Positions 11,206 through 17,065 of a stretch of DNA of 64,000 nt are shown here, one piece after another; within the stretch, counting starts at the first letter, position 1; every line of letters starts with the position of its first letter. Under the pieces are notes generated by a model. It did not search any database and was not told the origin of the DNA. It was given only the letters and a program-made list of their open reading frames with translations. The position numbers were made by a program, and so were the translations under genes. The stretch lies in NCBI RefSeq assembly GCF_054482525.1, contig NZ_CM137006.1. The stretch is one strand, 5' to 3'.

Positions 11206-12360
11206 TTACTTCAGACCGGCAGCATCGCGCAGCAGCTGCGCTTTGTCGGTTTTTTCCCACGGGAAATGTTCACGACCAAAGTGACCGTATGCTGCGGTTT
11301 CTTTGTAGATCGGGTGCAGCAGATCCAGCATCTGAATCAGACCGTATGGACGCAGGTCAAAGAACTCACGTACCAGCAGAGTCAGTTGTTCAGAAGGCAC
11401 TTTCTCGGTACCGAAAGTTTCCACCATGATGGAAGTCGGTTCAGCCACGCCGATTGCGTAGGAAACCTGAATTTCACAACGATCGGCCAGGCCAGCAGCA
11501 ACGATGTTTTTCGCGACATAACGTGCTGCGTAGGCTGCGGAACGGTCCACTTTTGATGGATCTTTACCAGAGAATGCACCACCACCGTGACGTGCCATGC
11601 CGCCGTAGGTATCAACGATAATTTTACGACCAGTCAGACCGCAGTCACCCATCGGGCCACCGATAACAAAACGACCGGTCGGGTTGATGAAGAATTTGGT
11701 GGCAGAAGTCAGCCATTCAGCCGGCAGAATCGGCTTGATGATCTCTTCCATTACCGCTTCTTGCAGCGATTTCTGGTCGATCTCTTCAGAGTGCTGAGTG
11801 GAAAGCACGACAGCATCGATACCAACGATTTTGCCGTCGTCATACTGGAAAGTCACCTGGCTTTTCGCGTCCGGGCGCAACCACGGCAGAGTGCCGTTTT
11901 TACGCACTTCAGCCTGACGCTGTACCAGACGGTGTGCATAGGTGATAGGTGCTGGCATCAGCACGTCGGTTTCATTGGTTGCGTAGCCAAACATCAGACC
12001 CTGGTCACCCGCGCCCTGTTCCAGCGGATCGGCACGGTCAACGCCCTGGTTGATGTCAGGAGACTGTTTGCCGATAGCGCTCAGAACCGCACAGGAATTA
12101 GCGTCAAAGCCCATGTCGGAATGCACATAGCCAATTTCGCGAACGGTGTTACGGGTGATCTCTTCGATGTCTACCCAGGCGCTGGTGGTGATTTCGCCGC
12201 CAACTAAAACCATGCCGGTTTTTACGTAGGTTTCGCAAGCAACGCGTGCTTTCGGATCCTGTTCGAGGATCGCGTCTAAAACGGCATCAGAGATTTGGTC
12301 AGCAATTTTGTCAGGATGCCCTTCAGAGACGGACTCGGACGTAAAAAGGTGTTTTGCCAT
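11206..12360 (-). CDS. metK: S-adenosylmethionine synthetase MetK, 384 aa
   Basis: Start [18 protein letters not shown] at ATG(rc) 12360; matches K-12 MetK. Confidence 0.95.
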
Positions 12361-12415
12361 ATTTAATATCACCTAAAGAGAATTTGGTTAGCTCAAACTG
12401 TTGTGTGGATTTTCT

Positions 12416-12667
12416 GTGGTAGCGGATCCTACCACGACTCTGCAGGTTAAAAACACTGGCAGTCTGAGTGTTAATCGGTATGGATGGATTAACATCTGGA
12501 TGGCTATTTTAGGTCAGTTCTTCACCCAATTTCCACTTTTTTTTGAATCGTGTCTCATTCTGTTAAAAACGTGGCTGGAAATTTTTCCTGACAATGCTGG
12601 CATTCTGCGTATTTATCTTTTGCAATTTTCTGCCATTGTGGGGTATAAAACGCGGCGCGCGGCTTAA
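12416..12667 (+). CDS. yqgD: Small hypothetical ORF at the position of K-12 yqgD (83 aa from GTG)
   Basis: ORF overlapping the metK promoter region; no recognisable domain; position and size fit K-12 annotation only. Confidence 0.3.
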
Positions 12668-12879
12668 ATAAAAAGCACACGACGTTTCTTTCGTGTTGCC
12701 ACTTCCAGCCGGGTTGAAATCAGAGTTTTGGCTTGTGGGTTCGTCTTAACAGGCGGCCGTGGAGGTGATACGAAATAATGAACCGTTGTCTGCTGCTTAA
12801 CCTGTCTCACCGTTCTGGTGAAGATTCGTTCCCCGCACTCTGCATCTCTGCTTTGCATACCTGCCGATGTTATACCCAT
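12664..12879 (-). CDS. yqgC: Small hypothetical ORF at the position of K-12 yqgC, 71 aa
   Basis: 71 aa ORF; length matches K-12 yqgC; no domain evidence. Confidence 0.3.
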
Positions 12880-13014
12880 CTCGGCGCTTCTCAGGATTCA
12901 AGAGCTGGTTACAGTTACTGAGGACTGAACAAGGGCGCTCTTGTAAAAACAAGAGTTTTCTCGTGGTTTCGCCGAACTGTCACACTTACGTTCGGTTATG
13001 TGCTTAATAATGTT

Positions 13015-13146
13015 ATGAAAAAGAAACCGGTTGCGCAGTTGGAGCGTCAGCATTCACTGCTGGAAAATCCATGTGCTTATGGGTTGTTATCGCAGTTCCA
13101 GGCTGCGATAGTCGTTAACTGTTTTACACTTAATAAAATAATTTGA
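13015..13146 (+). CDS. yqgB: Small protein YqgB, 43 aa, immediately upstream of speA
   Basis: [43 protein letters not shown]; stop TGA overlaps the speA RBS region. Confidence 0.6.
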
Positions 13147-13154
13147 GGTTCGCT

Positions 13155-15131
13155 ATGTCTGACGACATGTCTATGGGTTTGCCTTCGTCAGCGGGCGAAC
13201 ACGGTGTACTACGCTCCATGCAGGAGGTTGCAATGAGCTCCCAGGAAGCCAGCAAGATGCTGCGTACTTACAATATTGCCTGGTGGGGCAATAACTACTA
13301 TGACGTTAACGAGCTGGGCCACATTAGCGTGTGCCCGGACCCGGACGTCCCGGAAGCTCGCGTCGATCTCGCGCAGTTAGTGAAAACTCGTGAAGCACAG
13401 GGCCAGCGTCTGCCTGCACTGTTCTGTTTCCCACAGATCCTGCAGCACCGTTTGCGTTCTATTAACGCCGCGTTCAAACGTGCGCGGGAATCCTACGGCT
13501 ATAACGGCGATTACTTCCTCGTTTATCCGATCAAAGTTAACCAGCACCGTCGCGTGATTGAGTCCCTGATTCATTCGGGCGAACCGCTGGGCCTGGAAGC
13601 CGGTTCCAAAGCGGAGTTGATGGCGGTGCTGGCACATGCTGGCATGACCCGTAGCGTCATCGTCTGCAACGGTTATAAGGACCGCGAATATATCCGCCTG
13701 GCATTAATTGGCGAGAAGATGGGCCACAAGGTCTATCTGGTCATTGAGAAGATGTCAGAAATTGCCATTGTGCTGGATGAAGCAGAACGTCTGAATGTCG
13801 TTCCTCGTCTGGGCGTGCGTGCTCGTCTGGCTTCGCAGGGCTCCGGTAAATGGCAGTCCTCCGGAGGGGAAAAATCGAAGTTCGGCCTGGCGGCGACTCA
13901 GGTACTGCAACTGGTTGAAACGCTGCGTGAAGCCGGGCGTCTCGACAGCCTGCAACTGCTGCACTTCCACCTCGGTTCGCAGATGGCGAATATTCGCGAT
14001 ATCGCGACAGGCGTTCGTGAATCCGCGCGTTTCTATGTTGAGCTGCACAAGCTGGGCGTCAATATTCAGTGCTTCGACGTCGGCGGCGGTCTGGGCGTGG
14101 ACTATGAAGGCACCCGTTCGCAGTCCGACTGTTCGGTGAACTACGGCCTCAATGAATACGCCAACAACATCATCTGGGCGATTGGTGATGCGTGTGAAGA
14201 AAATGGTCTGCCACATCCGACGGTAATCACCGAGTCGGGTCGTGCGGTGACTGCGCATCACACCGTGCTGGTGTCGAATATCATCGGCGTGGAACGTAAC
14301 GAATACACGGTGCCGACCGCGCCTGCAGAAGACGCACCGCGCGCCCTGCAAAGCATGTGGGAAACCTGGCAGGAGATGCACGAACCGGGAACTCGCCGTT
14401 CTCTGCGTGAGTGGTTGCATGACAGCCAGATGGATCTGCACGATATTCATATCGGCTACTCTTCCGGCACCTTTAGCCTGCAAGAACGCGCATGGGCTGA
14501 GCAGCTTTATTTGAGCATGTGCCATGAAGTGCAAAAGCAGCTGGATCCGCAAAACCGTGCTCATCGTCCGATTATCGACGAGCTGCAGGAACGTATGGCG
14601 GACAAAATGTACGTCAACTTCTCGCTGTTCCAGTCGATGCCGGATGCGTGGGGGATCGACCAGTTGTTCCCGGTTCTGCCGCTGGAAGGGTTGGATCAAG
14701 TGCCGGAACGTCGTGCTGTGCTGCTGGATATTACCTGTGACTCTGACGGTGCTATCGACCACTATATTGATGGTGATGGTATTGCCACGACAATGCCAAT
14801 GCCGGAGTACGATCCAGAGAATCCGCCGATGCTCGGTTTCTTTATGGTCGGCGCATATCAGGAGATCCTCGGCAATATGCACAACCTGTTCGGTGATACC
14901 GAAGCGGTTGACGTGTTCGTGTTCCCTGACGGTAGCGTAGAAGTAGAACTGTCTGACGAAGGCGATACCGTGGCGGACATGCTGCAATATGTACAGCTCG
15001 ATCCGAAAACGCTGTTAACCCAGTTCCGCGATCAAGTGAAGAAAACCGATCTTGATGCTGAACTGCAACAACAGTTCCTTGAAGAGTTCGAGGCAGGTTT
15101 GTACGGTTATACCTATCTTGAAGATGAATAA
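13155..15131 (+). CDS. speA: Biosynthetic arginine decarboxylase SpeA, 658 aa
   Basis: Start [12 protein letters not shown] at ATG 13155 (ORF track TTG extension not needed); PLP-dependent decarboxylase. Confidence 0.95.
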
Positions 15132-15148
15132 TTAAGATTATTCCGCTG

Positions 15149-15190
15149 GCGGGTCGATTTATTTACGTAAATCGGCCCGCTTTCTTTTTA
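15149..15190 (+). terminator. Rho-independent terminator after speA
   Basis: 12-bp stem GCGGGTCGATTT/AAATCGGCCCGC, loop ATTTACGT, followed by TTTCTTTTT. Confidence 0.5.
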
Positions 15191-15276
15191 TATATTCTTA
15201 AAAATAATTTAGTTGCTTTTCTTATTAAATAATCTCCCTACAATCGCTGCATTAATTAAATGCAGAGGGAACGGTT

Positions 15277-16009
15277 ATGAAAAAATGGAAAGTACGTAGC
15301 GCGTTGGTGGCATTAGTCGTGCTGCTGGCCGGTTGTTCCAGTAATGCGCAGTATAATAGCAGTGCATCAGGCAATGTCGGCACCGCCTGGGGGGGGGGAT
15401 GTACACTCATCGGTTCAGGGCGTATCTGCTGAACGAGTCTGGCGCGATCCGGCAGAGATGATCGTTATTAGTTATTCGACTACTGTTCCTTCGGGCTACG
15501 ACCGCGTTTATAGCATTCGTATTAACGAACTGGAATATGCTATTCGCGATGGTAATTTTAATTCTCTACCTATTACGCGGGTTTATGATTCATCAAATAA
15601 TGAACCACGCTATATTATCCATGCCAGAGTAGGAATGAATTATCAATTATATGTCCGTAATTACAGTCGTAACACCAACTACGAGATCGTTGCTACGGTT
15701 GATGGCCTGGATGTTCTGAATGGTAAACAAGGTTCGCTGAATAACAACGGTTATATTGTGAATGCCGGAGATTCGTTAGCGATTAAAGGATTTCGCAAAG
15801 ATAAACATACCGAAGCGGCTTTTCAGTTCGCCAACGTTGCTGATTCCTACGCAGCCAATTCGGCGCAAGGCGATGTGCGTAATACCGGGGTAATCGGCTT
15901 TGCCGCCTTTGAATTACAAGGCTCGGCGCAAAACGCGATGCCGCCGTGCTCTGGACAAGCCTTTCCGGCAGATAACAATGGCTATGCGCCGCCACCGTGT
16001 CGGAAATAG
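15277..16009 (+). pseudogene. Lipoprotein gene interrupted by a frameshift at a G10 homopolymer; lipoprotein signal peptide in frame 1, ~200 aa mature domain in frame 2
   Basis: GAGGGA RBS, ATG 15277, MKKWKVRSALVALVVLLAGC lipobox; frame 1 stops at 15430-15432; removing one G from the 15389-15398 tract fuses it to ORF 15344..16009; no recognised domain in mature part. Confidence 0.55.
15389..15398. repeat. Homopolymeric G10 tract inside the lipoprotein coding sequence
   Basis: Ten consecutive G read directly from the sequence. Confidence 0.95.
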
Positions 16010-16076
16010 CAACCTCGCTTGATGCCTCGTCCATTTAAGGCGATAATTAGCACAAACTTGTGTTTCGCAAATCCAA

Positions 16077-16117
16077 CCCTTCCTCGTCGGGCCTAACGAC
16101 GCGGAAGGGTTTTTTTA
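16077..16117 (+). terminator. Rho-independent terminator after the lipoprotein gene, immediately upstream of speB
   Basis: Stem CCCTTCC...GGAAGGG with inner CGTCG/CGACG pairing, followed by TTTTTTT. Confidence 0.5.
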
Positions 16118-16144
16118 TATCGACTTTGTAATAGGAGTCCATCC

Positions 16145-17065
16145 ATGAGCACCTTAGGTCATCAATACGATAACTCACTGGTTTCCAACGCCTTTGGTTT
16201 TTTACGCCTGCCGATGAACTTCCAGCCATATGACAGCGATGCTGACTGGGTGATTACTGGCGTGCCGTTCGATATGGCCACTTCTGGTCGTGCGGGGGGA
16301 CGCCACGGTCCGGCAGCGATCCGTCAGGTTTCGACGAATCTGGCCTGGGAACACAATCGCTTCCCGTGGAATTTCGACATGCGTGAGCGCCTGAACGTCG
16401 TGGACTGCGGCGATCTGGTATATGCCTTCGGAGATGCCCGTGAGATGAGCGAGAAGCTGCAGGCGCACGCCGAGAAGCTGCTGGCTGCCGGTAAGCGTAT
16501 GCTCTCCTTCGGTGGTGACCACTTTGTTACGCTGCCGCTGCTGCGTGCTCATGCGAAGCATTTCGGCAAAATGGCGCTGGTACACTTTGACGCCCACACC
16601 GACACCTATGCGAACGGTTGTGAATTTGACCACGGCACCATGTTCTATACCGCGCCGAAAGAAGGTCTGATCGACCCGAATCATTCCGTGCAGATTGGTA
16701 TTCGTACCGAGTTTGATAAAGACAACGGCTTTACCGTGCTGGATGCCTGCCAGGTGAACGATCGCAGCGTGGATGACGTTATCGCCCAGGTGAAACAGAT
16801 TGTGGGTGATATGCCGGTTTACCTGACCTTTGATATTGACTGCCTGGATCCTGCTTTCGCGCCGGGAACCGGTACTCCGGTGATTGGCGGCCTGACCTCC
16901 GATCGCGCCATTAAACTGGTACGCGGCCTGAAAGATCTCAACATTGTTGGGATGGACGTAGTGGAAGTGGCTCCGGCATACGATCAGTCGGAAATCACTG
17001 CTCTGGCAGCGGCAACGCTGGCGCTGGAAATGCTGTATATTCAGGCGGCGAAAAAGGGCGAGTAA
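16145..17065 (+). CDS. speB: Agmatinase SpeB, 306 aa
   Basis: AGGAG RBS; arginase-family Mn-binding motifs ([26 protein letters not shown]). Confidence 0.95.

Follow-up and report, generated by a model that had tools for sequence, protein, structure and literature searches.

A lipoprotein gene frameshifted at a run of ten G between speA and speB of Escherichia coli, a probable slippage pseudogene

Layout of the speA-speB spacer and of the broken gene

The window, that is, the whole stretch of 64,000 nucleotides of contig NZ_CM137006.1 (assembly GCF_054482525.1) that was analysed, carries speA and speB on the same strand, and the spacer between them holds a lipoprotein gene that is broken at a run of ten G. 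Positions 15100-16160 match E. coli SCU-102 (NZ_CP051753) with 100% identity; this strain was isolated from a human rectal swab in California and is listed as phylogroup D, ST973 in a published table (PMC11251922). The features of the locus are as follows.

13155-15131, + strand: speA, biosynthetic arginine decarboxylase, upstream neighbour (ORF listing; SCU-102 annotation, a 1,977-nt CDS with the same stop)
15128-16067, strand not applicable: 940-bp segment whose K-12 counterpart is 64 unrelated bases (BLAST mapping of the K-12 junctions)
15148-15191, + strand: intrinsic terminator 3' of speA, with a T-run after its 15-bp stem (terminator scan)
15265-15269, + strand: Shine-Dalgarno-like GAGGG, 7 nt 5' of the ATG (read from the sequence)
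15277-16009, + strand: lipoprotein gene, frameshifted, 733 nt; intact form 732 nt, 243 aa (ORFs; SCU-102 annotation; identical to the G9 allele of VTB96959v except for the extra G)
15277-15336, + strand: predicted signal peptide with lipobox L-A-G-C, Cys20 encoded by TGT 15334-15336, Ser at +2 (translation)
15277-15432, + strand: translatable stub, 51 codons followed by TGA 15430-15432 (ORF listing, translation)
15389-15398, + strand: G10 run, site of the +1 frameshift (sequence; allele comparison)
15398-16009, + strand: +1-frame remainder, 204 codons (203 plus TAG 16007-16009), no further lesion
16075-16116, + strand: hairpin with U-run upstream of speB (RNA fold -26.2 kcal/mol, z = -5.05), common to K-12
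16145-17065, + strand: speB, agmatinase, downstream neighbour (ORF listing; SCU-102 annotation)

The first-pass annotation of this DNA had placed speA and speB about 1 kb apart, against about 140 bp in K-12, and the measured distances of 1,013 bp and 137 bp agree with this. Given the 64 unrelated bases of K-12, the spacer appears as a site occupied by two alternative cassettes within E. coli. The K-12 spacer is not a clean deletion, and its 64 bases correspond to positions 1437-1500 of the K-12 locus sequence.

Concerning the signals of the gene, a ribosome-binding site, a lipoprotein signal peptide and a terminator of its own had been proposed. The first two are in place, as the GAGGG element and the lipobox signal peptide. 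The 3' terminator is real, but it is a conserved element upstream of speB that is not private to the lipoprotein gene, since K-12 has the same sequence. The hairpin of the terminator that follows speA (15148-15181) lies within the segment absent from K-12. A simple scan of the + strand upstream of the ATG found no sigma-70-like promoter for the lipoprotein gene.

The G10 run occupies codons 38-41 of the ORF, and the sequence and both reading frames confirm that the frame breaks exactly at these ten G, as had been noticed before. According to the allele comparison, the ancestral state at this site is GGGGTGGGG, with the codons TGG GGT GGG GAT (W-G-G-D). The conserved core, which is all-beta, and the C-terminal PPC...PPPC are both encoded in the remainder of the gene downstream of the run. 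With respect to the G9 allele of VTB96959v, the gene shows one extra G, a premature stop and no compensating change. This bears out the pseudogene reading of the first-pass annotation: apart from one +1 frameshift the gene is intact, and NCBI labels it 'frameshifted' in SCU-102 and in strain 19KM1776; the lesion is thus already flagged in the public record (RefSeq). An ORF of 221 aa that starts at ATG 15344 was considered as the gene and rejected, as it has neither a Shine-Dalgarno sequence nor a signal peptide and corresponds to the +1-frame continuation of the broken gene.

The G10 run is the longest homopolymer within the 64 kb. G/C runs of at least six bases number 4 in the window versus 28 expected from base composition, a seven-fold depletion, and runs of at least ten bases, with 0.13 expected in the window, were seen in 20 of 300 Markov simulations. 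A Dcm site, CCTGG (15386-15390), lies against the run on its 5' side and shares bases with it.

The lipoprotein family and its genomic context

The stub ORF begins with MKKWKVRSALVALVVLLAGC, which has the basic n-region, the hydrophobic h-region and the lipobox (LAGC) of a signal peptidase II substrate, and the lipid-accepting position predicted from it, Cys20, is invariant in 42 homologues, as expected for a lipoprotein. The lipobox together with Ser at +2, where the Lol sorting rule would look for Asp, makes the outer membrane the probable destination of the product. The repaired 243-aa product gave no match in a Pfam search even at E <= 10, and the NCBIfam search returned sub-threshold matches confined to the lipoprotein signal peptide. 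A sequence search of the PDB found no relative, there was no match to a solved structure, and a literature search for the gene found no description of it.

Related proteins are widespread. Those of Salmonella, Citrobacter and Klebsiella share 72-74% identity with the product, those of Kluyvera, Raoultella, Intestinirhabdus and Entomohabitans 53-66%, and those of Variovorax, Acidovorax and Paracoccus about 40%. The AlphaFold database holds further relatives with 33-40% identity from Pseudomonas, Acinetobacter, Kingella, Moraxella, Ralstonia and Comamonas, all of which carry only the names 'lipoprotein' or 'outer membrane lipoprotein'. In the alignment of 42 sequences, Cys20, T36, W38 and G39 are invariant, and so is a core of the form Y..L...N...E....VDGLDV..G...GY...I.GFR...A.F (written YEIVATVDGLDV...GFRK). 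Since W38 and G39 are invariant, the G run sits in the codons of a conserved motif. The two C-terminal cysteines in PPC contexts pointed out by the first-pass annotation are present, and they are conserved in the enterobacterial members and not in distant homologues; a disulphide between them is plausible.

Regarding the gene neighbourhood, the order in Klebsiella is speA-lipoprotein-speB, and in Salmonella the gene follows speA directly. This position in both genera makes the lipoprotein gene the ancestral occupant of the site and the arrangement of K-12 a derived one. In two Variovorax genomes and in one or two related metagenome contigs the homologue lies inside the his operon, between hisD and hisC, and is followed by a conserved ORF of 115 aa that belongs to no Pfam family (loci approximately 6001-7187, and 5001-6171 in one of them). 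A paralogue in Trabulsiella has a context different from both the speA and the his-operon neighbourhoods. The neighbourhood was therefore discarded as a guide to function, being inconsistent among the enterics, Variovorax and the Trabulsiella paralogue.

Occurrence of the gene and length of the run in E. coli

The census was based on 5,426 complete E. coli genomes. About 3,550 of them (~65%) carry the gene segment of approximately 0.9 kb, and it is absent from ~35%; the genomes without it, K-12 and BL21 among them, match only over the final ~90 bp upstream of speB. Nearly all carriers have an intact 732-nt ORF, annotated as 'hypothetical protein', 'lipoprotein' or 'membrane protein', and in nearly all of them the run site reads TGG GGT GGG GAT, i.e., G4-T-G4. 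Run lengths were surveyed by blastn, with queries of 31-45 nt designed for each of the three flank variants covered; ~14 gene-carrying genomes fall outside the tally. Exact 32-mers with the interrupted site were found in 1,450 genomes on the flank GGC..ACC and in 1,300 on GGT..ACC, that is, an exact G4-T-G4 in at least 2,750 genomes, and the run is interrupted in >99% of E. coli alleles. On the third flank (..ACT.., ~770 genomes) no G9-G11 variant was found. Short megablast queries on the run were discarded as a census, as the low-complexity filter masks the run and the 28-mer seeds then fall in the flank only; 1,326 records matched in this way.

An uninterrupted run is present in just 22 of the ~3,550 carriers, distributed over three distinct haplotypes: G8 in two genomes, G9 in 15, G10 in three, and G11 and G12 in one each. 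The fetched G8, G10 and G11 alleles are all annotated as frameshifted and the G9 and G12 alleles as intact. A comparison of tract lengths across E. coli loci had been suggested by the first-pass annotation with G9 and G10 in mind, and it yields the whole series from G8 to G12, with G9 intact and G10 frameshifted. A protein of about 243 aa had also been anticipated from either nine or twelve G. This holds for G9, an allele that exists and encodes 243 aa, and in part for G12, where the gene is intact but encodes 244 aa. Alleles out of frame account for 6 of the 22 genomes, a frequency that alone cannot separate neutral decay from selected switching. The haplotypes with an uninterrupted run are as follows.

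Haplotype (a), that of the window: VTB96959v (chicken, South Africa) with an intact G9 allele; SCU-102 and 19KM1776 with G10 ('frameshifted')
Haplotype (b), O157-like: G9 in nine genomes from Taiwan, Korea, Gambia, China, Japan and Chile; G8 in EC974
Haplotype (c), flank GGT: G9, G10, G11 and G12 alleles, otherwise identical across the 1-kb spacer

The G9 genomes of haplotype (b) come from humans, chickens and a mink on three continents, and the eight that were fetched all encode WP_021577905.1. EC974, with a frameshifted G8, and EC1515 belong to the same Taiwanese urinary-infection collection and have the same allele apart from the run.

In haplotype (a), strain 19KM1776 (dog, Switzerland) has the same G10 as the window, and over 36,144 bp the sole difference between the two is the length of another G run. 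They are therefore taken as clone-mates that have the G10 in common by descent. This second run, at 614-621 of the window, is intergenic and upstream of hemW, with G8 in the window and G7 in 19KM1776, and the difference could stem from further slippage or from a miscalled homopolymer. VTB96959v is identical to the window across 8635-17018 (8.4 kb) except for G9 versus G10, and elsewhere in the 25-30 kb aligned it diverges by ~1-3.5%; overall the divergence is about 1%. A block of 8.4 kb that is identical apart from the run, amid such divergence, points to a recent exchange of the speA-speB segment by recombination between the clone of the window and VTB96959v. The clone of the window also has a cluster of three TRAP transporter genes between yggM and hemW (window 1 to ~350; 2373-5208 in the locus sequence of the clone), and VTB96959v lacks it at that position.

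The lipoprotein gene is evidently dispensable, since it is absent from ~35% of the genomes and has been inactivated by other means elsewhere. In strain S931B (NZ_CP196521) it is interrupted by an IS1 (IS1X4) insertion, a C-terminally truncated product of 174 aa is represented by 448 member sequences, and there is a degraded product of 181 aa, translated out of frame at its N-terminus. For Shigella dysenteriae, the AlphaFold database holds fragments of 174 and 181 aa. According to the first-pass annotation, a plain pseudogene would be recognised by homologues in other strains that lack any homopolymer and have a consistently degraded ORF. The first of these is largely what was found; the second is not, as the ORF is not consistently degraded.

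Origin of the run, alternative readings and known systems

Taken together, these data are best explained, with a probability of about 0.72, by a recent and potentially reversible slippage pseudogene in a dispensable gene, formed where a mutational hotspot had arisen by accident, and not by an evolved contingency locus. The 940 bp of the spacer hold an ancestral enterobacterial gene for a lipoprotein of 243 aa. Within its codons TGG GGT GGG GAT, a synonymous GGT>GGG change would presumably have fused the two G4 runs into G9 in a few lineages, a step compatible with mutagenesis by transient misalignment at the interrupting base of a split run; from general knowledge, we infer that such a base is itself a hotspot by this route. 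The uninterrupted G9 would then be prone to slippage during replication, and the clone of the window would have gained one G to give G10. In E. coli, the rate of indels is known to vary with the length of the homopolymer run (PMC8510543).

The order from G4-T-G4 to G9 and to G10 is indicated by the G9 allele of VTB96959v, otherwise identical, and by the G10 that 19KM1776 has by descent. From the G10 allele, translation that starts at ATG 15277 would end after 51 codons and leave at most a lipopeptide of 31 residues, and the beta-rich body of the protein would not be made. The lesion would be recent and revertible, since the rest of the gene is undamaged, either by a slip of -1 or by a slip of +2 to G12. 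It would be heritable at the level of the clone, with no switch built or maintained by selection.

The lengths from G8 to G12 among near-identical alleles mark the run as a slippage hotspot and, as far as the alleles compared show, no other site in the 1-8 kb flanks changes as fast as the length of the run does after the interruption is lost. The distribution over haplotypes indicates that the T>G step occurred on three backgrounds, although these three origins could in principle reflect short-patch recombination instead of independent T>G mutations. Thus, the uninterrupted run appears as a rare, recent and recurrent by-product of one synonymous change.

An artefact of sequencing or assembly was considered, in which the strain would truly be G9 with an intact gene and the extra G would be a homopolymer miscall. 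Long-read platforms often make errors in long G runs, the window and 19KM1776 differ over 36 kb in nothing but the length of another G run (G8 versus G7 at 614), and several of the odd lengths come from a single Korean assembly series. However, G10 was obtained in two assemblies from different laboratories, hosts and continents, and G9 was called consistently in 15 other assemblies. The two independent G10 assemblies make an error less likely, and this explanation of the extra G is considered unlikely.

The first-pass annotation also proposed a phase-variable switch. As a true contingency locus, slipped-strand mispairing would toggle a surface lipoprotein ON (G9, G12) and OFF (G8, G10, G11) at high frequency and with an advantage, for example against phage or immune pressure. 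Two features of such loci are found here: an uninterrupted simple repeat inside the ORF (G10, 15389-15398), and a frame-toggling polymorphism from G8 to G12 on 1-kb alleles that are otherwise identical or nearly so, known from assemblies in which sequencing error is possible. The five lengths, the rise of the uninterrupted run on three haplotypes and the return to frame of the G12 allele would all suit a switch, and the predicted product is a cell-envelope lipoprotein, the usual target class of these systems. Slipped-strand mispairing can reportedly drive phase variation in E. coli.

Nevertheless, the tract is not maintained across species or orthologues. It is uninterrupted in the 22 of ~3,550 carriers described above and interrupted in >99% of alleles (at least 2,750 with an exact G4-T-G4), and the orthologues of Salmonella (TGG GGC GGC GAC) and Klebsiella (TGG GGC AGC GAC) have no run. 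All nine G9 genomes of haplotype (b), from three continents, keep this length, and the G10 of both clone-mates, which come from different continents, looks like stable inheritance and not like rapid flipping. Moreover, the gene has been lost outright in ~35% of the genomes. A classical evolved switch does not agree with these observations, and a true contingency locus is judged improbable.

There is likewise a small chance that a contingency locus is being born at this site, where the recurrent silent T>G change would give G9 and lineages would flip ON and OFF (G8-G12) at ecologically relevant rates. If true, repeat-mediated phase variation would be arising de novo in nature, in a species that is held to switch genes by other mechanisms.

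Finally, a bypass of the frameshift, by transcriptional slippage on G10 or by ribosomal frameshifting that would restore some full-length lipoprotein, is very improbable: the downstream frame is fully intact and homopolymer runs of at least nine bases can trigger RNA-polymerase slippage in enterobacteria, as established for A and T runs, but we know of no documented case in which G-run slippage serves recoding in E. coli, the locus showed no stimulatory element, G10 is limited to one clone and one unrelated genome, and the ancestral alleles need no recoding.

From the point of view of annotation, the slippage pseudogene favoured here would be nothing out of the ordinary, a dispensable gene with a frameshift. 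Its wider interest is modest and lies in a clean natural example of the birth of a mutational hotspot, in which one synonymous substitution would fuse two short runs. The locus also points to a widespread and uncharacterised family of proteobacterial lipoproteins without a Pfam model or a solved structural relative.

Compared with the poly-G and poly-C loci of Neisseria, Haemophilus and Campylobacter, the gene has a G run of at least nine bases in the 5' part of an envelope lipoprotein gene, one-base changes in length toggle the frame, and several lengths occur among natural isolates. In contrast to those loci, the run is not conserved here, with >99% of the alleles and all the orthologues examined interrupted; it would derive from a silent mutation in rare lineages; and slippage is suppressed in the E. 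coli host by its canonical methyl-directed mismatch repair.

The gene also resembles the ordinary homopolymer frameshift pseudogenes of dispensable accessory genes: an indel of one base lies in a run, the remaining ORF is intact, NCBI applies the flag 'frameshifted', and many other strains lack the gene or have it disrupted. The differences are that the hotspot appears to have been created here by a recurrent synonymous change and that the lesion would be unusually reversible, since the same site shows five lengths, including an in-frame allele with three additional G. Lastly, for glpK of M. tuberculosis and the homopolymeric tracts of Bordetella pertussis, reversible frameshifts are reported as phase variation although these species lack classical contingency loci. 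These systems resemble the present one in having a modest G/C run in coding sequence with heritable and reversible loss of function among close relatives, but their tracts are species-fixed and have measured phenotypes, whereas the tract in the speA-speB spacer is restricted to some lineages.
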